A stretch of 64,000 bases of DNA from Polyangiaceae bacterium (lineage in GTDB: Bacteria; Myxococcota_A; Polyangia; Polyangiales; Polyangiaceae). A program made the translations under genes and the position numbers. Where the stretch lies: the NCBI GenBank assembly GCA_016712345.1, contig JADJRH010000002.1, positions 72,466 through 136,465 of the forward strand, read 5' to 3'. The notes beneath the pieces are model-generated. The model worked only from the letters and a program-made list of their open reading frames with translations. It had not been told where the DNA came from and did not search any database. Shown here one piece after another: positions 4,461 to 59,595 of this stretch (positions are counted from its first letter, which is position 1; each line of letters begins with the position of its first letter).

Positions 4461-6066
4461 CGAAGATGCTCTTTCCAGGGGTGGGCTTGGGGGCGGCGGT
4501 GCTCTTGGGAGCGGTGGAGCCTGCAACTTTTGGTTTGGTGGAAGCGGCAGGGGTTGCAGAAGCTGTTTCGGTGGGTGCGGCAGCAGCGGAGGTTGCGGCG
4601 GATGGCTCTACCGAAACAACTGTCGCGGGACTGGCAGTAGGTGCGGCGGCGGTTTGCACCGCGGCCGCGGTTGACGCTGCGGCGGTGGGTTGTAGCGGTT
4701 GGGATGCGGTCTGTGCGCTTTCTGACTTGTTTGACAAGGCGAAGAAAGCCCCAGCCGCTCCACCGAGAACGAAGAGGGCCACGACCGCAATGAGGAGCGG
4801 TGTTTTACCGGATGACGTGGGTACAGCCGGGGTGGCAAGCACCATGTTGGGTGCGGTGGTGGGTAGGGTTTGGCCTGCCGGTGCGGGTGGGTAGGTTTGT
4901 GCAGAGGGTTGGGTAGGTGGAATGGCAGTGGAACCGGCGGCCGGAGGCACGGAAGGCGCTGTGGAAGCTGCGCGGGCGGGAGGCGGCGCTTCAAGCGCGA
5001 TGGTTCCACCGCGATGGGGAGCGGGCGCGGCATCAATGGCGATTGTTCCTCCAAGTCCAATGGGGGCTTGGGGAGGTGGGTTGCGGGGAGGTGCACCGGC
5101 GACGACAGTATCGAGGCCTGCTGCGCGTGCGATTCGGTCGATATTGGGTTGAGAGCGACTTGGGGCGAAGGGCGCAATGGCGAGAACAAAATCGGCAATG
5201 GTGGGGTAGCGAGCGCCACGATCGCGGGCGTACGCTTTTTCAAGCGCGAGAGCAAACGGTTCGGGTAGATCAGGGCGGGCGACGCGAAGTGGAGTGGGGC
5301 TGCCCGTTAATACTTCGGCGCATAGTTGGGGTAGGGTATCGGCATAAAAAGGTTGTTTGCCGGCGAGCAATTCATACAGGGAGATGCCGAGGGCGTAGAT
5401 GTCTGTCCGGTGATCAACCCCGCGGGTTTGCTGCATTTGTTCGGGCGACATGTAAAGTGCCGAACCCATGGCCGCCGTGGTTTTGGTAAGGTTGTCTGTG
5501 GACTCTTGCATTTTAGAAATGCCAAAGTCGAGGACTTTGACAAGGGAAGATCCGTCGTGACGCCGGGTGAGAAAAAGGTTGGCGGGTTTGATATCGCGAT
5601 GGATGATCCCTGCGGCGTGCGCTTCTGACAGGGCTTCTGCCGCTTGGATGACGTAGTCAATAGCGTCTTGGAGGGCGAGTACACCTTTGATGGTTAACTC
5701 TTTGGCGAGATCATGGCCTTCTAGGTACTCCATGACCATGTAGGGCGAGCCGTTTTCAAGCGTGCCGACGTCGCTTACGCGGGCGACATGTTCACTTTTT
5801 ATTTTGACTGCGGCTTTTCCCTCGCGGAGAAATCGCGCGGCGGCCTCGGGGTGTTGGGCAAACGTGGAGGTTAGAAATTTGAGGGCGACACGGTCGTCGA
5901 GGGCGATGTGTCGAGCCTCGACGACAACGCCCATTCCACCCTGTCCAATGACGCGGTCCACTCGGTATTTGCCGGCCAGGATGGTGCCGGGGGCAACGGG
6001 AGCGTCGTTGACGACGGCTGGGCCGGCGGAAGGAGGAGTGCCTGCGGGATGGGTAGATTGAGTCAT
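4450..6066 (-). CDS. Eukaryotic-like Ser/Thr protein kinase (Hanks type): N-terminal kinase domain, Pro/Ala-rich linker, TM segment and an Ala/Thr-rich tail
   Basis: GQGGMGVVVEARH glycine loop, VALKFL, HRDIKPANLF catalytic loop, DFGISK, MSPEQ activation segment. Confidence 0.9.
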   Translation of the reverse strand: MTQSTHPAGTPPSAGPAVVNDAPVAPGTILAGKYRVDRVIGQGGMGVVVEARHIALDDRVALKFLTSTFAQHPEAAARFLREGKAAVKIKSEHVARVSDVGTLENGSPYMVMEYLEGHDLAKELTIKGVLALQDAIDYVIQAAEALSEAHAAGIIHRDIKPANLFLTRRHDGSSLVKVLDFGISKMQESTDNLTKTTAAMGSALYMSPEQMQQTRGVDHRTDIYALGISLYELLAGKQPFYADTLPQLCAEVLTGSPTPLRVARPDLPEPFALALEKAYARDRGARYPTIADFVLAIAPFAPSRSQPNIDRIARAAGLDTVVAGAPPRNPPPQAPIGLGGTIAIDAAPAPHRGGTIALEAPPPARAASTAPSVPPAAGSTAIPPTQPSAQTYPPAPAGQTLPTTAPNMVLATPAVPTSSGKTPLLIAVVALFVLGGAAGAFFALSNKSESAQTASQPLQPTAAASTAAAVQTAAAPTASPATVVSVEPSAATSAAAAPTETASATPAASTKPKVAGSTAPKSTAAPKPTPGKSIFDDR

Positions 6067-25888: not shown

Positions 25889-28792
25889 GTGAGACGTGAT
25901 TTGCAGCGCCGCACAGATGATAATGCGCCGATGGAGCTTTCACCCGGTGCGGCGTTTGCACGGTACACCGTGGAAGCCGCGCTTGGCGGTGGCGGCATGG
26001 GCCATGTGTACCGCGCGTTCGACACGCAACTGCATCGGCGGGTGGCGCTCAAAATCCTCCATGACGCAAACGCAAAAGGGGATGCGGCGGCGACCGCAAT
26101 TCTTCGCGAAGCGCGCGCGGCGGCGGCGCTCAATCATCTGCACGTCGTCACTGTTTTTGAAGTGAGCGAGTTTGAAGGCGTGCCGTTTATGGCGATGGAG
26201 CTTGTTCAAGGCACATCGCTGCGGCAACTCATCGGCCGCGGGTCGATCTCGATTGGCCGGAAAATCAAGTGGCTGACGCAGGTGGCCGATGCGCTCGCGG
26301 CAGCTCACGAAGCGGGCATTGTGCACCTCGACGTGAAACCCGAAAACGTGATCGTTCGCGAAGACGACCTCGTGAAGGTGCTCGATTTCGGTATTGCGCG
26401 TCGCAGAAGTTTTGACCCCGAAAAGTGGTTGCCCACCAATGTTCCGCCGAGTGATTTGGCCCTTCTAAACACGCTCACAAATGGCAACGGCGCGATCGTT
26501 GGAACGCCGCGCTACATGGCACCGGAGCAAATCGGCGGCAGCGCTCTGTCGAGTCACACAGACCAGTTTGCGTGGGGTGTTGTTGCCTTTGAGTTGTTCA
26601 CCGGCAAAAGCCCGTGGCCGCCCGGTGATGACCTGTATTCGTTGTTTTCAAACATTGTTCGAGCGAAGCCGCCGGACCTTCGGTCGTACGTTCCCGAGTT
26701 GCCCGATGAAGTGGTGCGCGTTGTCGAGCGGGCCATGAGCAAGCCGCGTGAAGATCGCTTTCCGGCAATGGGAGATGTGGTGCGCTCGCTGCGCCCATTT
26801 CTCGCGGAAACAAGCGGTTTGGCGTCGTCCGATTTGGCCTTTCGTCCTGTCGCTTCCGATGAAATGCCAACGCTTCGAGCCGATGCGACGGCGCCCACGG
26901 TGGATGTGGCTTCGCTGCCTATTTCGCTTCCGGTGGCCGACAAAGATCGATCCACCGCCGAAACGATCGATGCGATTTCGCTGCCCGGCGTGGCAAAAAA
27001 AGCGGCTGCAGAAACGCTGCGCGCCGCTGAGAACGTGGCTGCGCCGAGTGTACACCACACGGGTGCACCGGTGACGCAGCCCACGGGTTCGCAACTTACG
27101 CAACGATCGGGAATGCCTGCGGAGCCTGCAAACGCCGCCATTTCCAATCGCCGTGTGTTGGGGCTTGCGGCGGCGTTATGTACACTTTTGCTCGGCGTTT
27201 GGTTTTTTACGCGTGACAAATCCGTGGCCGCTCCGCCGGGGCCCCCGCGTCTCACAAGCTGTACCGACGCCGCCGAGCGAACATTTGCCGCGGCGACGCG
27301 CGCGCAACGAAGTGGCAATTGGCAAAGTGCCCGTCAGCTTTTTCAAGAAACAACAACGATTGATCCGGAGTGTGCGCCGGCGCACGCGCGTTTGGTGGTA
27401 ATTGGCTATTGGACAGATCCACCTTCAAAAACGCGTGATGCAATGCGGCTTGCGCTCGATCTGAAAGAAAAGCTCCCCGAGCGCGACGGTGAACTATTGC
27501 ATTGTTATGAGTCGGTGTTGTGGAATACACCGCCTGATAAAAAGGCATTTTCAAGCTGCCTTGTTTCTTTGTCAGATGCTCATCCGGGCGACGCTGAACT
27601 CGCATATATCGCTTCAGACTTTGCGCCTACGCCGGCAAAAATGAGGGAATTGGCGGAGCGGGCCCTTTCAATTGACCCTCACTATTCAGACGCCTACCAG
27701 GCACTTGCGGCGGCTCTTGCGCGTGAAAACAACGAGGAAGGTGCGCTGAATGCGCTCGCAAAGTGCGTTGAAAAAAACACCACTTCAATGGATTGTTTGG
27801 CACAGCGGGCGTTGCTTCTGCGGCACTTGGGTCGATGTTCAGATCTCGAATCCACGGGTAGAGCGTGGATTGCGCGCAGCAGTGAGTCAACAGGGGCTCA
27901 TTACACGCTCGCGTCGGCGCTCGCCGCGCTCCAAAAGCCAAAGGCCGCGGTGGAAGAGGCGCTTGTGACTCGTTGGGCCCATTTGGCCGGCTCCTCGGAT
28001 GCGGGCAGTGAACCGTTGGAGCGAACAGCGTTGTCGGCGTTGTTTGGTGATTTGGCGGGGGCTCGCAAACAGGCAGTCGGCGTTTTCGACAAGGCGCAGG
28101 GGGCCGCCGATTCCGACGACCGAGTGGATGCGGCGCTGTGGCTTATTGAACTCGACCTGGAGACAGGCAATGTGGATCAGGCCACAACGTTTGCAGCCGA
28201 CTTATTTCAACGAAAAGCGGCGTGGGACGCGGCATCGCGGCATCGCGGTTTTAATTCAAAAGCGGCTCTTTTTGAGCCGACTCTGCTGCGGGTGTTGGGG
28301 CTGAAAAACGGCCTTGTCAAAAGCGAACACAAAGAGGCACTTTCAGCGTGGAATACGCGCATGAAGGATACTGCCACCCTCCATCAAGAAGGCATTTGGG
28401 TGCTCGGTACGGCGCTGCTCGCAAACACACCCGAGCAGGCCGAAAAAGCTCTCGAAACAATGCCACCTTCAATCACATCTGAAACAAGTTGGATCAGTGA
28501 ACTTCCGGGCCTGATCACGTACGCTTATGCCGCAAAAACGCTTCTACTGGCCGGGAAAACAGATCTTGCATTGCCACTTTTAAAGCGGGCTGTTGCGTCG
28601 TGTACATCGCTTGAAGATCCCCTTTTGCACACGCAGGCAACTCTGTGGTTGGGACAGGCACTTGCGAAAACAGGCAATCTGCAAGAGGCGTGTGCCGCAT
28701 TTACCAGCGTTCAAGCTCAATGGCCGGCAACATCCGGCTCACTCACAAGGCAGTCGGCCGAAGAGCAAATCAAAGCACTCAGTTGCAAGTAG
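25889..28792 (+). CDS. Ser/Thr protein kinase with a TM segment and a long C-terminal TPR-repeat domain
   Basis: GGGGMGHVYRA, VALKIL, HLDVKPENVIV, DFGIAR, GTPRYMAPEQ. The C-terminal 500 aa is TPR/Ala-rich. Confidence 0.85.
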   Translation: MRRDLQRRTDDNAPMELSPGAAFARYTVEAALGGGGMGHVYRAFDTQLHRRVALKILHDANAKGDAAATAILREARAAAALNHLHVVTVFEVSEFEGVPFMAMELVQGTSLRQLIGRGSISIGRKIKWLTQVADALAAAHEAGIVHLDVKPENVIVREDDLVKVLDFGIARRRSFDPEKWLPTNVPPSDLALLNTLTNGNGAIVGTPRYMAPEQIGGSALSSHTDQFAWGVVAFELFTGKSPWPPGDDLYSLFSNIVRAKPPDLRSYVPELPDEVVRVVERAMSKPREDRFPAMGDVVRSLRPFLAETSGLASSDLAFRPVASDEMPTLRADATAPTVDVASLPISLPVADKDRSTAETIDAISLPGVAKKAAAETLRAAENVAAPSVHHTGAPVTQPTGSQLTQRSGMPAEPANAAISNRRVLGLAAALCTLLLGVWFFTRDKSVAAPPGPPRLTSCTDAAERTFAAATRAQRSGNWQSARQLFQETTTIDPECAPAHARLVVIGYWTDPPSKTRDAMRLALDLKEKLPERDGELLHCYESVLWNTPPDKKAFSSCLVSLSDAHPGDAELAYIASDFAPTPAKMRELAERALSIDPHYSDAYQALAAALARENNEEGALNALAKCVEKNTTSMDCLAQRALLLRHLGRCSDLESTGRAWIARSSESTGAHYTLASALAALQKPKAAVEEALVTRWAHLAGSSDAGSEPLERTALSALFGDLAGARKQAVGVFDKAQGAADSDDRVDAALWLIELDLETGNVDQATTFAADLFQRKAAWDAASRHRGFNSKAALFEPTLLRVLGLKNGLVKSEHKEALSAWNTRMKDTATLHQEGIWVLGTALLANTPEQAEKALETMPPSITSETSWISELPGLITYAYAAKTLLLAGKTDLALPLLKRAVASCTSLEDPLLHTQATLWLGQALAKTGNLQEACAAFTSVQAQWPATSGSLTRQSAEEQIKALSCK

Positions 28793-28905
28793 CCCATTCG
28801 ATATGGACGCCGCGCCTCAGGTGGCGTGACGTGGCAGGTCGTTGCGGGGCGTTCAATCATTTTCAGTATTGGAGAAAATCGACAGTCACGATAATGCTTG
28901 TGCGC

Positions 28906-29199
28906 ATGGCGAAAAAGACGCAGTCGCACGGGAACAAGACCGCTCAATCTACTGCCAAAAACGCTGCAATGCCGCCCATTCGGCTTGAAACGGTGACATC
29001 GCTTGAGGCCGGTGAGTACACCGACGAGCTGGACCCGTTGGCCGCACACACCAACTCAGCCCGTCCGCCCAATCGGTATGAAGCGCGTCCGCCCAATCGG
29101 TATGAAGCGCGTCCGCCCAATCGGTATGAAGCGCGTCCGCCCAATCGGTATGAGGCGCGCCCGCCCAATCGGTATGAAGTAGTTACTCCCGCGCACTGA
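28906..29199 (+). CDS. Small Lys-rich protein ending in five tandem RPPNRYEA octapeptide repeats (hypothetical)
   Basis: ATG at 28906 in frame with ORF 28645..29199. Coding-like GC3. Overlaps the 3' end of the convergent gene by 17 nt. Confidence 0.35.
   Translation: MAKKTQSHGNKTAQSTAKNAAMPPIRLETVTSLEAGEYTDELDPLAAHTNSARPPNRYEARPPNRYEARPPNRYEARPPNRYEARPPNRYEVVTPAH
29056..29175 (+). repeat. 24-bp perfect tandem repeat x5 (cgtccgcccaatcggtatgaagcg)
   Basis: Five near-identical units read directly. They encode RPPNRYEA on the + strand and GGRASYRL on the - strand. Confidence 0.9.
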
Positions 29200-30175
29200 C
29201 AACGTTCGCCACATCGGTGATGCGCGTCAGCACCCCTGTCTTGAGCCACTTTTGCCGGTTCGCCTTGTTTTTGAGCACCGTTGCACGCTCAAAAAAAAGG
29301 CGTGCCGCCGCTTCCGCTCCCACCTGAGCCAACCTGACAGAAGCCACTTCAAAAAGCGGCGGATTCCACGGCGCCCCCAAAAGCATTTGTTCAGAATAAG
29401 AGCGCACACGCGTTACTTTGCGCCAATAACTTTCAAAGTTAGAATACGGATAGTGTAAAATGGCGGGTGACAAAAATCGCGCTCGACCAAGCCCGTAGTG
29501 CAGCGGAAGGTGAAATCCGTGTGCTCCGGCGGGGAGTGTGCCCCGCCGCGTTTGTACTGCCGCCTTCCCATTGGCGTACGCCAAAAAATAGCCGCCTCGA
29601 TCCTGAAAATAGGGCAGCGCCTCGTCGAGCGCCGACGGGTCAATCCCCCGGGGATTTTTTGTGAAGAGTGTTATTTCAGAAAAGGGCTCTTTGACCGCGG
29701 TGTGTTCACACAGCCCTTCATGATTGTCATAAATGACATACCCAATACCCAATTGACTGAGGCTGTTAAAGTGCTGCTGCGCATCGCTGTTCGGTGGATA
29801 AAAAAGCTCATCACCGTCAATGTGCAAGAGCCATGGCACGCCGTCGGACCGGGCCATTTCAAGGCCGGCTTGCACAACACACAGTTGCCTCGCTGTGAGT
29901 TCATCCGGCGACGCTGCGGGCTTTTCCCAATCACCGGCAAATGGCAGATACGTTTTTTGAAAGTCGTCTTTTGCCATGCGCTTTTGAAGCGCCTTGTTCA
30001 CATGAATAAACCTGACTCCCGCCTCCGAAAAGGGCTTACGTCCGGGTTCGGGTTTGGCGTCAAAAAAGATATAAAAACGCTCGATTCCAATGTGCTTGTG
30101 CCAGTAAATCCACGGTCCAAGATCGGCAGTGGGCGCCCGCACGGTGGTCACAATGGCCACGTTGGATTGACTCAC
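29183..30175 (-). CDS. Putative GT-A fold glycosyltransferase (DxD motif)
   Basis: VAIVTTV...FYIFFD N-terminal strand pattern. LLHIDGDELF DxD-like motif. 330 aa. Confidence 0.4.
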   Translation of the reverse strand: MSQSNVAIVTTVRAPTADLGPWIYWHKHIGIERFYIFFDAKPEPGRKPFSEAGVRFIHVNKALQKRMAKDDFQKTYLPFAGDWEKPAASPDELTARQLCVVQAGLEMARSDGVPWLLHIDGDELFYPPNSDAQQHFNSLSQLGIGYVIYDNHEGLCEHTAVKEPFSEITLFTKNPRGIDPSALDEALPYFQDRGGYFLAYANGKAAVQTRRGTLPAGAHGFHLPLHYGLGRARFLSPAILHYPYSNFESYWRKVTRVRSYSEQMLLGAPWNPPLFEVASVRLAQVGAEAAARLFFERATVLKNKANRQKWLKTGVLTRITDVANVVSARE

Positions 30176-40002: not shown

Positions 40003-40150
40003 AGCTAACCACGGAGGCACGGACGTTTATGGAGATCCACGGAGGATCTATATGTAGTGTACACAGCAGCGTCTCGGCGACTTTGGAAGAAGGTCGCCGT
40101 CATCCAAGGCGAAAATACAAAAAATCTCTGTGTACTCTCTGTGGCCTCCC
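40003..40150. repeat. Degenerate copy of the CACGGAG/CTCTGTG heptad inverted-repeat element (intergenic, convergent gene ends)
   Basis: aaccacggaggcacggacgtttatggagatccacggagg ... caaaaaatctctgtgtactctctgtgg aligns with the element at 57871..58048, including the internal tgtagtgtacacagcagc core. Confidence 0.55.
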
Positions 40151-40212
40151 CAAGCTCCGTGTTTAAATACGACGTGTCAGCAAAGCGTGACGTGTCAGCG
40201 AAGTGCGAGGTG

Positions 40213-43705: not shown

Positions 43706-45184
43706 ATGACCCTCTCCTTTCGAACCAAACTGCTTGTCAGTTACCTCGGACTGGTGGCTTTTGTAATCGCCGTCACCACGTTTGAACTCAATCGTTCGCT
43801 CGGCGCCGATTTGGTGCGGCAACTGGATGAAAGGCTGATCGCTCAAACCGATGGCGCGATGTTGTGGATTGGGGCGGGGCGGCATCCCAATCGGCTGGCG
43901 GGTAGATTGGCTTCGGTGGTGGGGGCGGAAATTGCCCTGATTGATAAAAGTGGAACGGTGCTTGGGTATGCCGATGCTCGGCAGTCCGTTCTACAAACCG
44001 GAACAGGCGCCGATTCTCCCGATTCAAAACCGCCTTCTTTTCCCGACCAAAACGATCAACCTGAAGTGAAAGGCGCCCGCGCCGCGGGGCGGGGTTTTGC
44101 GACGCGGCTTGGAAACCTTCCCACTCGGACAATGCGGTATGTGGCGGTTTCCAACCCCGAGGGGTTGGTATTGAGACTGGGTGTACCTTTGTCGGGGGTG
44201 GAAGAAACGCTCACAGGGATGCGTCGGCGCCTTCTTTTTGCGGCATTGTTGGCGATGGTGGTGGCTGTGGCGCTCGCGCTCTTGGCATCAAGGGTGATCT
44301 CGGGACCACTGCGCGCTATGGCGGATATCGCGCGGAAAATGGCGGAGGGTGATTTTAAGGCGCAGCCGCCTTCCAATTCTCCCGATGAGCTTGGCGCGCT
44401 TGCAAAGGCGCTCTCCTCCATGGGTAGTCAACTGGAAGCGCGCATTACTGATCTGACTTCCGAGCGTGATCGTCTGACGGCGCTTCTCGGTCAGGTTCGA
44501 AAGCTCGAGGTGGTGCGTCGCGACTTTGTGGCCAACCTCTCGCACGAGCTTCGAACGCCTGTCACAGCCATTCAAGGCTACTCTGAAACGTTGCTCACCT
44601 GTCCAACAGAGCCTGCGACGCGCGAGAAATTTCTGACGATCATCCATCGCAACGCGGAGCGGGTAGGTCGCCTTCTCGGGGATCTTCTTCAACTGTCTTC
44701 CATTGAGGCAGCGCCTGAATCGTTTGAGCCGGAGCCGATTGTATTGAGCGCTCTCGCAGGGCTTGTGGCGCAGACTGTTGAGGAGCGCCGAGTGGAGTCG
44801 AGCGCTCAGATCGATGTGGAGATTTTGCCGGACCTGACAGCGATGGGCGACGCGGGGCGGCTTGAACAGGTGGTTGAAAACCTTGTTGACAATGCCCTGA
44901 AACACGGCGGAAAAGGTGTACGCATTCGCCTGACGGGGGCCAAACACAATGGTCAGGTTGAACTTCGCGTGAGCGACAACGGGCCGGGAATTGCCGCGGA
45001 GCACCTTCCACGCATTTTTGAGCGTTTCTACAGGGTAGACCCCGCACGTTCGCGCGAAAAAGGCGGCGCGGGGCTGGGCCTGGCCATTGTGAAACACCTT
45101 GTGGAAGGGATGGGAGGAAACATTCAGGTCGAGAGCCGCGTGGGCGAAGGCACAACCTTTGTTGTGACTCTACCCGCCGCCTAG
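43706..45184 (+). CDS. PhoR-like sensor histidine kinase (2 TM, HAMP, HisKA, HATPase)
   Basis: LSHELRTPVTAIQGY H-box. DNGPGIAAEHLPRIFERFYR. GGAGLGLAIVKH. Its stop TAG is supplied by the terminus of the adjacent MITE. Confidence 0.8.
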   Translation: MTLSFRTKLLVSYLGLVAFVIAVTTFELNRSLGADLVRQLDERLIAQTDGAMLWIGAGRHPNRLAGRLASVVGAEIALIDKSGTVLGYADARQSVLQTGTGADSPDSKPPSFPDQNDQPEVKGARAAGRGFATRLGNLPTRTMRYVAVSNPEGLVLRLGVPLSGVEETLTGMRRRLLFAALLAMVVAVALALLASRVISGPLRAMADIARKMAEGDFKAQPPSNSPDELGALAKALSSMGSQLEARITDLTSERDRLTALLGQVRKLEVVRRDFVANLSHELRTPVTAIQGYSETLLTCPTEPATREKFLTIIHRNAERVGRLLGDLLQLSSIEAAPESFEPEPIVLSALAGLVAQTVEERRVESSAQIDVEILPDLTAMGDAGRLEQVVENLVDNALKHGGKGVRIRLTGAKHNGQVELRVSDNGPGIAAEHLPRIFERFYRVDPARSREKGGAGLGLAIVKHLVEGMGGNIQVESRVGEGTTFVVTLPAA

Positions 45185-45381
45185 GTGGCTGGTGTTTTTC
45201 GTAACGAGCAGCCCCGATCACGCGTCCGAGCGAGTTGCGAGAGCGCGAAGCGCGAAGCACACCGAGCAGCGCGAAGCGGTGCGAAGGTCACCGGAGCGGA
45301 ACATACGCGGAGTTTTTGAGCACCGGAAGCGCAGCGAGGACGCGTCAGCGGGGCGCGCAGTAGAAAACACCAGCCACCTAG
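45183..45381 (+). mobile_element. MITE-like element copy A (about 197 bp) with 17-bp terminal inverted repeats GGTGGCTGGTGTTTTTC and flanking TA
   Basis: cTA|GGTGGCTGGTGTTTTTCgtaacgagcagccccgatcacgcgtcc...gacgcgtcagcggggcgcgcagtaGAAAACACCAGCCACC|TAg. The interior is a long imperfect palindrome. Contains an extra about 56-bp gcgcgaagc-rich insert relative to copy B. Confidence 0.75.
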
Positions 45382-50782: not shown

Positions 50783-50923
50783 GTGGCTGGTGTTTTTCTA
50801 CTGCGCGCCCCGCTGACGCGTCCTCGCTGCGCTTCCGGTGCTCAAATACGCAGAGTATGTTCCGCTCCGGGTCTCGCTCGGACGCGTGATCGGGGCTGCT
50901 CGTGACGAAAAACACCAGCCACC
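50781..50923 (-). mobile_element. MITE-like element copy B (about 141 bp), inverted relative to copy A, with the same 17-bp terminal inverted repeats
   Basis: tTA|GGTGGCTGGTGTTTTTCtactgcgcgccccgctgacgcgtcc...gggctgctcgtgacgAAAAACACCAGCCACC|TAg. The reverse complement aligns along its length with copy A, minus the 56-bp insert. The spurious ORFs 45192..46031(+) and 50706..50915(-) both begin MFFVTSSPDHASER. Confidence 0.75.
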
Positions 50924-50936
50924 TAGCACCTACCCA

Positions 50937-56011: not shown

Positions 56012-56553
56012 CATCTCCCGCACCCGCGCGCACCGCTCGATGGCTCGACGCCGTGACGACGGTGCTTGTCACTTCAATCGTGGTTGTACTGGCCGTGGCC
56101 GTGAGTCCGTCGCTTCTTCGTGCCGGCGAAAGCGCCGCTTCGCCGCCGCGTGACTTTCCCCCGCCGGTGCATGTTGCCCATCCAAGAAGTGTACACAACT
56201 CCCACCCCAACGCGTTTCCGTTTTCCGACGACGACGGCCCTCAAGATGTGGATGAGCCGCCGGGAGCGCGCGCCGGTGCTCGGTCGCCGAACAGCCCGCT
56301 CGCAGCGCCGCCGGGTGTTCCCGGTGGAGACCGCGATGATGCCGACGACAACGATCTCGGGCTCAAGAGTGGAGTGATCACGAGGAGGCTTCAACTTCGC
56401 GACAGGGCCACTTCCGCGGTCGTTCAAGTGGTAGAACCGGGGCAAACGGTCAGCATTCTTCGCGACGACGGGCAGTGGGTATTGCTCGTTTTGCACAGAC
56501 CGGGTGATCTGGTGACGGGTTGGGCGCTTCGAAGTGAGCTTTCGCTCCGATGA
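56008..56553 (+). CDS. Membrane protein with a disordered acidic linker and a C-terminal SH3b-like domain
   Basis: ATGA overlap with the upstream gene. TM WLDAVTTVLVTSIVVVLAVAV. C-terminal VQVVEPGQTVSILRDDGQWVLLVLHRPGDLVTGWALRSEL. Confidence 0.45.
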   Translation: MTSPAPARTARWLDAVTTVLVTSIVVVLAVAVSPSLLRAGESAASPPRDFPPPVHVAHPRSVHNSHPNAFPFSDDDGPQDVDEPPGARAGARSPNSPLAAPPGVPGGDRDDADDNDLGLKSGVITRRLQLRDRATSAVVQVVEPGQTVSILRDDGQWVLLVLHRPGDLVTGWALRSELSLR

Positions 56554-57806
56554 ACTTCACAAAAAACGCTCGTTCTTACAGGGGTCGCGTATTAACAACG
56601 CGCCCAGAACAGAGTGTATTCAAAACGCACCTTGAAGAAGACGGCGTTGTTGTTGTGGGCGCAGACGGAACCATTCTGTTTGTGGGTCCGTACTCAAACA
56701 ACGTTCCACACCCGGTTGTGGATTTTCATCCGCACGTGATTACCCCCGGATTTGCCGACGTTCATGTGCACTATCCCCAAACGCGCGTGATGGGTAGGGC
56801 CACGGGGCCTCTTCTTGATTGGCTTTCAAACACTGTGTTTCCAGAAGAGTCCAAGTTTGTTGACTCCGCTTATGCCGACAAAGTTGCCAATGAGTTTTAT
56901 GCGCACTTAATTGCCTCGGGGACAACCTGCGCCGGCATTTATGCAACATCGTCAAAAAGCGCTACTCAAACAGCCATTCAACACGCATTGAACGTGGGTA
57001 TTGCGGCTCAGGTGGGCCTTGTTTTAATGGATCGCGGCGCCCCGGACGCGCTTGTTGTTTCTCGTGAACAGGCACTCTCCGATTTGGCCCAATTGCTGAA
57101 TTTCACCGCTGGAAACGAGCGGGTAAAACTGGCCGTCACGCCGCGTTTTGCACTGAGTTGTACACCTGAATTGCTGCGTGAAGCGGGCCATTTTGCGGCT
57201 CAAAACAAGCTTCTTGTGCAAACCCACCTTTCTGAAAACGTGGAAGAATGCCGGGCAACACTCGCGGCATTTCCAGGGTGCGCCGACTATTTGTCGGTGT
57301 ATGAATCGGCGGGTCTTGTTCACGATCAGGCCTTGTTTGCGCACGCTATCCATTTATCTGACAGTGAGGTTGAAAGAATGGCGCGGGCGGGGGCCAAAGT
57401 GGCTCATTGTCCCGATTCAAACCTGTTTTTGGGCAGCGGAACAATGCTCCTTCGCGCGCTCCTCTCGGCTGGAATCAAAGTGGGTTTGGGCAGTGACGTG
57501 GCGGCGGGCCGAACCTTTGATATGCGCCGCATTGCGGCCTCGGCCTACGACGTGGCGCTCCTTCAAAAAGCGCCCGTTTCCCTCGAAGAGTTGTTTGCTC
57601 TTCTCACGTTCGGCGGCGCTCAAGTGCTCGGTTTTGGTGACACGAGGGGAGCGCTCACGGCAGGTAGAATGGGCGACTTCTTGGTGATCGACGTGCCTGA
57701 ATACACGCGCCAAAAAAGCGACATTCTGGGACAACTGCTTTTTGCAAGTGACACTTGCAAAGTGATTCGAACCTATTTGAGTGGCAAAAAGCCCAATCTG
57801 CCCTGA
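56550..57806 (+). CDS. guaD: Guanine deaminase (amidohydrolase superfamily)
   Basis: PGFADVHVHYPQTRVMG matches the guanine deaminase metal-binding HxH block. About 418 aa. 4-bp overlap with the upstream gene. Confidence 0.75.
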   Translation: MNFTKNARSYRGRVLTTRPEQSVFKTHLEEDGVVVVGADGTILFVGPYSNNVPHPVVDFHPHVITPGFADVHVHYPQTRVMGRATGPLLDWLSNTVFPEESKFVDSAYADKVANEFYAHLIASGTTCAGIYATSSKSATQTAIQHALNVGIAAQVGLVLMDRGAPDALVVSREQALSDLAQLLNFTAGNERVKLAVTPRFALSCTPELLREAGHFAAQNKLLVQTHLSENVEECRATLAAFPGCADYLSVYESAGLVHDQALFAHAIHLSDSEVERMARAGAKVAHCPDSNLFLGSGTMLLRALLSAGIKVGLGSDVAAGRTFDMRRIAASAYDVALLQKAPVSLEELFALLTFGGAQVLGFGDTRGALTAGRMGDFLVIDVPEYTRQKSDILGQLLFASDTCKVIRTYLSGKKPNLP

Positions 57807-57870
57807 CAAGTCTATAACTTCAGCCGCCTCGCAACGACCTGAAATGCCCTGCCACCTGACGCGTCGTAAT

Positions 57871-58048
57871 CAACACGGAGGCACAGAGATCACGGAGTTC
57901 CACGGAGTTTTTTTGTATTTTAGGCTGCAATAGGCTCGCACGGCGTCGTGCATCACCTGTCTGGCTTGCGATTGTGGATGATGTGTACCCATAGCAGCCA
58001 AAGAAACAAAAAACTCCGTGTTCCTCCGTGTTCTCCGTGATTCCGTGG
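57871..58048. repeat. Inverted-repeat element built from heptad arrays: three CACGGAG repeats + T7 on one arm, and A6 + three CTCCGTG repeats on the other arm about 100 bp away
   Basis: caaCACGGAGgcacagagatCACGGAGttcCACGGAGttttttt ... caaaaaaCTCCGTGttcCTCCGTGttCTCCGTGattccgtgg. The arms are reverse complements of each other. Intergenic between guaD and the BNR-repeat gene. Confidence 0.7.
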
Positions 58049-58143
58049 TGAAGAGACGTCACAGGCATCCAAACGCGTTCAGTCGTTGCGTGGCGGCGTC
58101 GGTTGTAGTGGCCATTTGTCGGCCTCTGGACTATTCGAGCCGC

Positions 58144-59595
58144 ATGATGTTTCAGCTTTCGCCCGTGGGCAGGGCGCTTTTGGCTACTTCCCTCGTAGGA
58201 GCTTTTATCGGATGCGGGGCGCGCGGCGGTTTGCTCGAAGAGTATGGGCAGGCCGGTGTGGGCGGCGGAGGCGGGTCTGGCGGGAATGGTGGAAGCGGCG
58301 CAGGCCAAACAACGTCGGTCACAACCGGCGTGACCACCACATCCACCGGAACAACCACGCCGACGCCCGTCAATGCAACCGTCATATCAGAATCATTCGA
58401 CAGCATTTTTGAAGGCGAAACGTCGGTCGTTGCCACGTCTTTCGGCTTTGTTGCCGCCGCGTGGATTGCGGTGAGTCAACAGGGCGAGCCATTTATCGCT
58501 TATGCGTTTTCCACCGATGACGGTGCCAATTGGGCGCCGCCCGTTTCATTGCAGTCTCCCGATGGTCGTGTGGGGAGCGATCCGGTGCTTGCGGTGGACT
58601 CGGCCGGAAACATTTACCTCACATGGGTAGGTTTTTTTATCGGCTCAAACGGGCCTGAAGACATGGTTGTGTACACGTCCAGGGCCCCTGTCGGCGCAAC
58701 GTTTTTTGAAGACCCGGTGCCGGTGAGCCCGCCCAACACACCCAACGGTATTTTTCTTGATAAGCCGTGGATTACCACGACGGCCAAAAACTCGGTGGTT
58801 GTGTCGTATGCACGATTTGATACTACCGGCGCAAGCGACTTTGCGATTGTCACGGGTAGAAGCGACAACGGCGGCCAGAGTTATCAGCTTTCTGAAGTGG
58901 TAAAAGACGCTTCGTTTAACTCGTTTTTTAACCTGGCGTACGTGTGTTCTTCGCTCGAAACGGGACGAGTGTACACAACCTATTTAGACATTACCCAGTT
59001 TGGACAACAACTTGAAGTAAAGACAAAATTGGCATGGAGCGATGACGACGGTCAGACGTGGCCGCCCGGCAACAACGTAGAAGTGTCTGAAGGTGAGTTG
59101 GATGTGGCCTTTATGGATCCGGGCTGCACCGCCGTTGGAAACGAAGTGTGGGTCACCTACGGGCGCAGTCCTGATCCGTTGAGTGGTGAGTCGGAAGAAA
59201 GTCAAAAGCTCAATGCGATTATGGTGCGCCATTCGGCCAACGGCGGAGCCAACTTTGAGCCGGGCTTTAACGTGGCAGACCCAACTGTCGCCAAGTTTTT
59301 TATGCATCAAGACCTCAAGGCCGAGCCGACAACCGTGCTCGACATGGTCTATTACGCGGGCAATCAAAACGAAGACACCAACGGTACCTTCAGGCGGGTG
59401 CGCTTTAAAACGGGTGAAGTGCAGCCCTTGAGTGAAACGGTGTACTCACCAATTATCTTTACCCCCGATCGCGCGGTGCCTTATTGGCTCGGCGACTACG
59501 TTGGACTCTACGTGCGCGGCACGCGAATGTACACAACCTACGTGGTGAACGAAACCGAGCTTTCCCACGTGGCTTTCAGCGCGTTCAACTTGTAA
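58144..59595 (+). CDS. Secreted lipoprotein with BNR/Asp-box repeats (sialidase/glycosidase-like beta-propeller)
   Basis: MMFQLSPVGRALLATSLVGAFIGCG lipobox. Gly/Thr-rich linker. Asp-boxes STDDGANW, SDNGGQSY, SDDDGQTW, SANGGANF. Confidence 0.6.
   Translation: MMFQLSPVGRALLATSLVGAFIGCGARGGLLEEYGQAGVGGGGGSGGNGGSGAGQTTSVTTGVTTTSTGTTTPTPVNATVISESFDSIFEGETSVVATSFGFVAAAWIAVSQQGEPFIAYAFSTDDGANWAPPVSLQSPDGRVGSDPVLAVDSAGNIYLTWVGFFIGSNGPEDMVVYTSRAPVGATFFEDPVPVSPPNTPNGIFLDKPWITTTAKNSVVVSYARFDTTGASDFAIVTGRSDNGGQSYQLSEVVKDASFNSFFNLAYVCSSLETGRVYTTYLDITQFGQQLEVKTKLAWSDDDGQTWPPGNNVEVSEGELDVAFMDPGCTAVGNEVWVTYGRSPDPLSGESEESQKLNAIMVRHSANGGANFEPGFNVADPTVAKFFMHQDLKAEPTTVLDMVYYAGNQNEDTNGTFRRVRFKTGEVQPLSETVYSPIIFTPDRAVPYWLGDYVGLYVRGTRMYTTYVVNETELSHVAFSAFNL

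Follow-up and report, generated by a model that had tools for sequence, protein, structure and literature searches.

The segment 57805-58121 of the window (the whole 64,000-nucleotide stretch of Polyangiaceae DNA analyzed here) is probably a gene-less, presumably non-autonomous copy of a widespread selfish palindromic nuclease cassette, and a second palindrome at 40005-40166 is of the same family. In its full-length form, the cassette consists of a left arm, one small gene for a GxxExxY nuclease of the PD-(D/E)XK type, and a right arm that mirrors the left. The two copies in the window are members of this family, carry no gene, and are insertions specific to their lineage.

Two heptad-array palindromes in a Polyangiaceae genome

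The canonical core of the 58 kb copy extends from 57869 to 58052 and holds four CACGGAG-type heptads in each arm. The left arm (57869-57914, + strand; arm profile E 2e-7) consists of ATCAA, then CACGGAG-G-CACAGAG-AT-CACGGAG-TTC-CACGGAG, then T7 (57908-57914), and the right arm (58008-58052, + strand; arm profile E 4.5e-6) of A6 (58008-58013), then CTCCGTG-TTC-CTCCGTG-TT-CTCCGTG-A-TTCCGTG, then GTGAA. A heptad search of the 64 kb window places the exact + strand CACGGAG matches of this copy at 57874, 57891, and 57901 (left arm, spacings 17/10) and the exact - strand matches at 58014, 58024, and 58033 (right arm, spacings 10/9). These are the three heptads per arm, followed by T7 in one and preceded by A6 in the other, that a sequence-only reading had described; it had missed a fourth heptad per arm, of slightly different sequence (CACAGAG, 57882; TTCCGTG, 58041). 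Each arm contains at least two heptads of the form C-R-C-N-N-A-G at a period of 8 to 12 nt, and the heptad type is the same in both arms, inverted (CACGGAG / CTCCGTG).

Complementarity between the arms reaches 82% over 44 nt (57870-57913 with 58008-58051; inverted-repeat pair I1), and a second stem pair, I2, runs inward (57909-57934 with 57988-58013). CACGGAG matches the 64 kb window 14 times against 10.2 expected, and 9 of the 14 matches lie inside the two elements; since the window-wide count alone is not unusual, the heptad signal is one of clustering. When the window was scanned with an arm profile for which other genomes had supplied 114 arms, exactly four arms were retrieved, belonging to the two copies (E 2e-7, 4.5e-6, 0.0019, and 0.042), and nothing else. 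The earlier claim of a repeat family made of heptad arrays in a long inverted repeat is borne out by the 82% complementary arms and by the arm profile. The suggested long RNA stem also holds in prediction: the + strand of 57860-58060 folds at -90.2 kcal/mol (z -8.2), and the - strand reaches -94.8 kcal/mol (z -10.6).

The 93-nt interior (57915-58007) is partly self-complementary through pair I2. A tblastn search with GxxExxY proteins found no GxxExxY gene or remnant in it, nor anywhere in the 64 kb window; because the interior (93 to 106 nt) is devoid of such a remnant, we class the 58 kb copy as a gene-less form. An 82-aa open reading frame (ORF) spanning the element was dismissed as an artefact of the repeats. 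An intrinsic terminator was likewise rejected, as the promoter and terminator scan of the element gave no site inside it and the T7 run sits within the stem. Neither the window nor 20 to 26 family loci matched any Rfam family at the gathering and E-value thresholds, the sub-threshold matches being generic hairpins to microRNA precursor models only.

At 58 kb, the element extends further than first reported. The terminal pentamer of the right arm, GTGAA, fits the family's GTKAA, that of the left, ATCAA, differs from TTMAC at two positions, and pairing continues past both pentamers into extra stems. The fold of 57805-58121 is a single hairpin (-151.9 kcal/mol, z -8.8), and this fold, together with the comparison with a relative described below, delimits a palindromic insert that occupies the space from the guanine deaminase stop codon to the BNR-repeat gene. 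Its outer stem, formed by 57812-57838 on the left and 58082-58108 on the right (pair I3; 27 nt, 78% complementary, paired in the fold), belongs to the insert and lies outside the canonical arms. Because these outer stems are not part of the canonical family, the insert may be composite, or one element nested in another.

Two + strand genes flank the 58 kb copy. Upstream is a guanine deaminase gene (amidohydrolase; 56550-57806, Pfam PF01979, E 1.4e-52), whose product is 100% identical to a protein named "MAG: guanine deaminase [Polyangiaceae bacterium]"; downstream is a gene for a BNR/Asp-box repeat protein (58144-59595, weak Pfam matches to BNR and BNR_2). In a relative from a Logan assembly (L201), a deaminase 85% identical to that of the window is followed by the same BNR-repeat gene start, with the ATG and the N-terminal codons conserved, but the gap between the two genes measures 36 nt there and 337 nt in the window. 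Judged by this comparison of orthologous sites, the 58 kb element is a lineage-specific insertion between two genes that are nearly adjacent in a relative. L202, more distantly related (62% identity), carries another gene downstream and gives no information on the site. The hairpin, of about 300 to 315 nt, probably lies inside a two-gene transcript, to which the element would simply add some 315 nt of stem that RNase III may cut, as it does in the ORF-carrying intervening sequences (IVS) of 23S rRNA. The sequence-only reading was right to place this copy immediately upstream of the BNR-repeat gene; no link of the element to that gene, or to the PhoB-like or ECF genes, is evident.

The second copy (40005-40166) is real and degenerate, and its best alignment to the 58 kb copy is in reverse orientation. 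One of its arms (40005-40044, + strand; arm profile E 0.042) reads CTAAC, then CACGGAG-G-CACGGAC-GTT-TATGGAG-ATC-CACGGAG; the other (40119-40166, + strand; E 0.0019) consists of an A-run, then CTCTGTG-TACT-CTCTGTG ... CTCCGTG, then TTTAA, and matches 57901-57926 at 85% over 26 nt (pair I7). The two copies have in common their arms, an inner block TTTTTTGTATTTT (85% over 26 nt), and a flank motif CTGACRCGTCGTAWTYAA. The copy announced by the sequence-only reading therefore exists, and the common core which that reading named is weak and forms part of the palindrome. The 40 kb copy folds weakly (z -3.6 and -1.9). Its flank at 40166-40212 (- strand) corresponds by alignment to 57825-57869 (CCTCGCA...CTGACRCGTCGTAWTYAA), and a solo, partial copy of this outer-arm motif, free of heptads, occurs at 28813-28851 (- strand; 39 nt, 79% complementary to 57825-57863, pair I4; CGCCYCGCAACGACCTG...CCACCTGAGGCG), immediately past the stop of a 967-aa ORF (25889-28792). 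Since the outer parts recur both beside the 40 kb copy and alone, either the repeated unit exceeds the canonical arms or the heptad element is nested in another palindrome, an arrangement that other genomes also show. The solo motif may represent a separate small repeat family of this genome that a heptad element has entered.

The 40 kb copy is found between the convergent ends of a gene for an STN-domain protein, which adjoins an ECF sigma factor gene, and a gene for an LpxL-type acyltransferase, so the gene, ORF, and Pfam context agrees with the earlier statement that both copies are intergenic. In two Polyangiaceae metagenome-assembled genomes (MAGs; L215 and L216) that keep the gene order and whose acyltransferase is 85% identical, no heptads occur at the orthologous site. 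There, a variable-copy G-rich tandem repeat (gggcggcgggcgcgaggtgggga) fills the region (L215 3930-4128, L216 1990-2135).

Other repeats were observed in the window. Long inverted repeats at 45181-45367 (77 nt, 95%) and 50794-50926 (54 nt, 98%) bracket a 5.4 kb segment that is flanked by two histidine kinase genes and contains five ORFs, one with PSCyt2/PSCyt3/PSD2 domains and the others with no Pfam match; no transposase was seen in it. ORF 28645-29199 ends in a 24-nt tandem repeat (AGCGCGTCCGCCCAATCGGTATGA; five copies, 94 to 100% identity; 29058-29201), which would translate into an octapeptide repeat. At 759-917, a 51-nt unit is repeated in tandem three times, the second copy being equal to the third and each of them 74% identical to the first.

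A palindrome family built around a GxxExxY nuclease gene

The heptad-array palindrome family is not private to this genome. We scanned one representative genome per species with the pattern AAAAANCTCYGTGN{2,4}CTCYGTG, which returned at least 120 matches. Those listed include Bacteroidota, Chloroflexota, Planctomycetota, Acidobacteriota, and Gammaproteobacteria, as well as Omnitrophota, Kiritimatiellia, Armatimonadota, one Peptococcaceae bacterium, and one Methanocellaceae archaeon, and at least several genomes contributed more than one locus. Among the matches listed, features absent from the search pattern recur: a third heptad in 59 of 127, the array terminus GTGGT in 66 of 127, and a partner arm upstream in 46 of 127. 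The sequence-only reading had predicted further copies, and they exist in many phyla, with the arm profile tying the window copies to them; the conservation of the arrays in orthologous intergenic regions of relatives, by which that reading had also proposed to judge the family, was not found.

Across the family, an arm consists of TTMAC followed by two to five C-R-C-N-N-A-G heptads separated by purine spacers of 1 to 3 nt, and the other arm mirrors it; complementarity of the arms ends 5 nt outside the first heptad. The interiors of the 52 paired arms among the matches listed cluster at 4 to 43, 76 to 121, 166 to 322, and 411 to 490 nt, the window copy, with 106 nt, falling in the 76-to-121-nt cluster. 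They are unrelated between genomes, and none resembles that of the window. Gene-less elements predominate among these pairs (47 versus 5 gene-bearing). They avoid coding sequence and are intergenic: only 7 of the 47 lie in long stop-free stretches, compared with 84% of random segments. The genes flanking them are co-directional in 14 cases, convergent in 8, and divergent in 4.

Nested elements were seen in L017, where an inner hairpin with CACAGAT heptads lies within a CACGGAG element (2568-2725; Thermoguttaceae), and in L100, where a complete short element is inside another (4974-5124); L054 and L120 are further loci in the group with arrays or nesting. The first two cases suggest insertion into the apex of existing hairpins. 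Single arms in tandem, an arrangement unlike the paired hairpins, were noted in L108 (190-398; five CACRGAG arms, 34-nt spacing) and in L037 (4332-4785; four to five arms, 99-nt spacing).

Among the matches listed, all paired-arm interiors of 411 to 490 nt hold one ORF of about 124 to 125 aa, and this ORF encodes a GxxExxY protein (TIGR04256, E 8e-47; PF13366 [PDDEXK_3], E 3e-46). A shorter, 217-nt interior, in L022, retains a 26-aa remnant of the gene. The association was examined in an independent sample of 80 metagenome loci, chosen solely by their similarity to GxxExxY proteins. By a strict CACRGAG definition, arms are present at 21 of the 61 loci with enough flank. Most of the remaining 40 have, by eye, the same architecture with variant heptads (CACGAAG, CGCAGAG, CGCCGAG, CGCGGAG, CACAAAG, CATGAAG, and CAGTGAG), and a general heptad detector run on the 80 loci recovered an upstream arm at 56, a downstream arm at 57, and both at 47. 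Gene-bearing interiors in these loci are tightly sized, mostly 375 to 512 nt, with the gene starting about 15 nt past the last heptad and its stop lying 3 to 10 nt ahead of the right arm.

At least eight heptad variants occur, and they are matched between the arms of each element. The heptad type is identical across the arms at 40 of the 47 two-armed loci and differs by at most 1 nt at all 47, while random pairing of arms gave a mean of 9.4 identical pairs and a maximum of 20 (10,000 permutations). As the heptads of an element agree while their type varies, the conserved feature is the match between the arms and not one particular heptad sequence. Perfect complementarity was found in 96 of 143 heptad pairs, and mismatches concentrate at the variable position 4. 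The number of heptads may differ between arms (3 versus 5 in L205). Transitions among the arm mismatches would yield 65 G.U pairs on the sense strand and 73 on the antisense strand; this symmetry lends no support to an RNA structure selected on one strand, and the arm pattern looks like that of terminal inverted repeats whose identity is maintained in the DNA.

On a single contig, L139, one copy with the gene and one without it have common ends (67 nt at 95.5% at one end, 86 nt at 89.5% at the other) and unrelated centres. A gene-bearing relative of the gene-less form therefore exists, and its sole protein is the small PD-(D/E)XK nuclease. The GxxExxY protein keeps the D, E, and K of its PD-(D/E)XK motif without exception, and a search of defence and phage libraries gave weak matches to Cas4 models in the core region and otherwise none there; these features of the sequence support a nuclease role. 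A PDB sequence search with the protein returned no solved structure, and its predicted structure (pLDDT 46.5) was too poor to use. Viral contigs yielded a single distant GxxExxY homologue, in a giant-virus MAG, which makes phages unlikely carriers.

A different cargo was considered and set aside: longer "pairs" enclose ordinary genes, such as those for FabG or a glycosyltransferase, and are probably two separate elements. In L165 (258-1420), arms of the CGCCAAG/CGCAAAG type surround a 212-aa ORF that adjoins a GxxExxY cassette; this ORF may encode a nucleotidyltransferase, AbiEii-like by eye, and thus be a second kind of cargo.

Mode of spread and alternative readings

We suppose the cassette to be a selfish element whose parts spread, or are kept, together. 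Its nuclease would act on the arrays of heptads or on the structure (hairpin or cruciform) into which these fold, and the gene-less copies would have arisen by deletion and would either persist or be mobilized in trans. Because the 64 kb window has no GxxExxY gene, a cognate nuclease elsewhere in the source genome is assumed. No consistent target-site duplication was detected in 130 family elements, direct repeats being at control level at every tested boundary and length; the sole, weak excess is of 4-nt repeats at boundary 5 (8 observed versus 1.5 expected). This absence argues against a classical cut-and-paste DDE mechanism, and it would fit a mobility route based on nuclease-driven copying or recombination. 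The evidence for mobility consists of presence and absence between relatives, and no transposition or homing event was observed. One GxxExxY protein found in identical form on 24 contigs has the same genomic context in all of them, with no sign of movement. A tight insertion was noted in L205 (2962-3438; the same in L206 to L214), where a GxxExxY cassette is wedged between SpoU methylase and RarA/MgsA genes, the left arm holding the last codons and stop of the methylase and the next gene starting 9 nt beyond the right arm.

The alternative that survives best reverses the order of events. The hairpin would be primary and the nuclease gene an invader, so that gene-less hairpins would be the "empty sites" of a GxxExxY homing-type endonuclease, which cuts near the apex, after which its gene is acquired by copying from a hairpin that already holds it. 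Several observations sit well with this scheme, namely the excess of gene-less over gene-bearing forms given above (47 to 5), the near-exact filling of the interior by the gene, the nesting of elements at the apex of other elements, and the missing target-site duplications, which homing would also predict. Moreover, heptad type tracks the protein sub-lineage; all "MEFDELSN..." proteins, for instance, go with CACGAAG. Against it, the interiors of gene-less forms, 4 to over 300 nt long, are variable and mutually unrelated, which leaves no conserved apex target, and the gene remnant in L022 indicates that at least some gene-less forms arose by decay. As the scheme also leaves the spread of the hairpins themselves unexplained, we consider it improbable and favor the cassette reading, in which arms and gene belong together.

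We give somewhat less credence still to a reading in which the hairpin is mainly an RNA structure useful to the host (to be processed by RNase III, to stabilise mRNA, or to stop transcription) and the nuclease gene rides along by chance. The very stable folds and the location between genes, including short operon gaps, would suit such a function, and there is a precedent in the ORF-carrying hairpin of Coxiella 23S rRNA, which is cut out by RNase III (PMC4990558). Nevertheless, relatives whose neighbouring proteins are 85% identical lack the elements at the orthologous sites, the orientations of the flanking genes are mixed, and G.U pairs on the sense strand are not in excess among the arm mismatches, which are symmetric; nor does the element contain a terminator-like site or match an Rfam family.

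The sequence-only reading's own suggestion, that heptads about 10 bp apart are response-regulator or iteron-type binding sites controlling the neighbouring genes, draws on a spacing that puts them on one face of the DNA helix and on the two-component and ECF sigma genes present in the window, but it is very unlikely, as the sites are absent from the orthologous intergenic regions (L201; L215, L216), the same architecture stands beside unrelated genes in many phyla, the heptad sequence changes between elements while staying matched between arms, and what the arms surround is a nuclease gene, not promoters.

A broader proposal goes beyond the two window copies. GxxExxY nucleases with heptad-array inverted repeats could constitute an undescribed class of mobile cassette across prokaryotic phyla, in which the nuclease would be the sole protein, would recognize the heptads specific to its own lineage, and would insert without target-site duplication into intergenic DNA or hairpin apices, leaving behind a very large number of gene-less hairpins, the two window copies among them. 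We put this forward tentatively, as a possibility that we would not yet call probable.

Relation to known systems and significance

In design, the closest analogue is the ORF-carrying IVS of 23S rRNA in Coxiella and Leptospira. This selfish insert of about 430 nt has paired ends that form a long stem around one small ORF, as in the cassette; it was gained by horizontal transfer, its ORF is prone to decay, and RNase III cleaves the stem in Coxiella (PMC4990558). Unlike the heptad elements, the IVS is inserted into helix 25 or 45 of the 23S rRNA and encodes the S23p four-helix-bundle protein, whereas the heptad elements lie between protein-coding genes, have heptad stems, and encode a GxxExxY PD-(D/E)XK protein or nothing. 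The 64 kb window contains no rRNA, so the 58 kb element is not in either of these helices.

The gene-less copies also resemble miniature inverted-repeat elements (MITEs) and small palindromes such as Correia/NEMIS, ERIC, RUP, and Nezha, which are short, intergenic, and multi-copy, carry no gene, and have hairpin-forming terminal inverted repeats. The likeness extends to the existence of a longer, related gene-bearing element and to a presence that varies between relatives. The heptad elements differ in having no target-site duplication (130 elements), in being paired with a 124-aa PD-(D/E)XK nuclease and not with a DDE transposase, and in having ends that are lineage-variable arrays of 7-nt units, found in many phyla and not in one genus.

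A parallel may further be drawn with REP/BIME sequences and their RAYT (Y1) partners, abundant extragenic palindromes of which some flank one small gene thought to move them. The gene is of another kind, GxxExxY/PF13366 and not a Y1 transposase in every gene-bearing case examined, and the heptad arms are arrays of 25 to 45 nt, whereas a REP is a single palindrome of 20 to 40 nt with a GTAG head. Small PD-(D/E)XK enzymes are encoded by selfish or mobile DNA in the case of homing endonucleases such as I-Ssp6803I and of Cas4-like nucleases; compared with these, the GxxExxY proteins have no intron, intein, or CRISPR context, and the relationship is at the superfamily level only.

No paper describing the arms was found in the literature searched, which excludes most subscription journals, and the only trace of the arm motif there is a B. 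fragilis primer that contains it. The pairing of heptad-array palindromes with GxxExxY genes is apparently widespread and undescribed, although an earlier description is possible. PF13366/TIGR04256 is very large, with at least 8000 members by our count (all 8000 scored candidates had E < 1e-10), and a 2012 survey of the superfamily lists the function of PDDEXK_3 as unknown and reports multiple horizontal transfers (PMC3424549).

At the 58 kb locus itself the finding is modest, an ordinary-looking selfish insertion between two genes. Its interest lies in the family. The tie of GxxExxY proteins to a fixed DNA architecture with lineage-specific heptads offers a testable substrate for this large, uncharacterised group. 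For annotation, the link between arms and gene would explain a class of intergenic hairpins in many phyla, and the hairpins of the family probably also give rise to spurious ORF calls. If the mobility of the cassette holds true, it would represent a type of mobile DNA that operates without a DDE, tyrosine, or serine enzyme.
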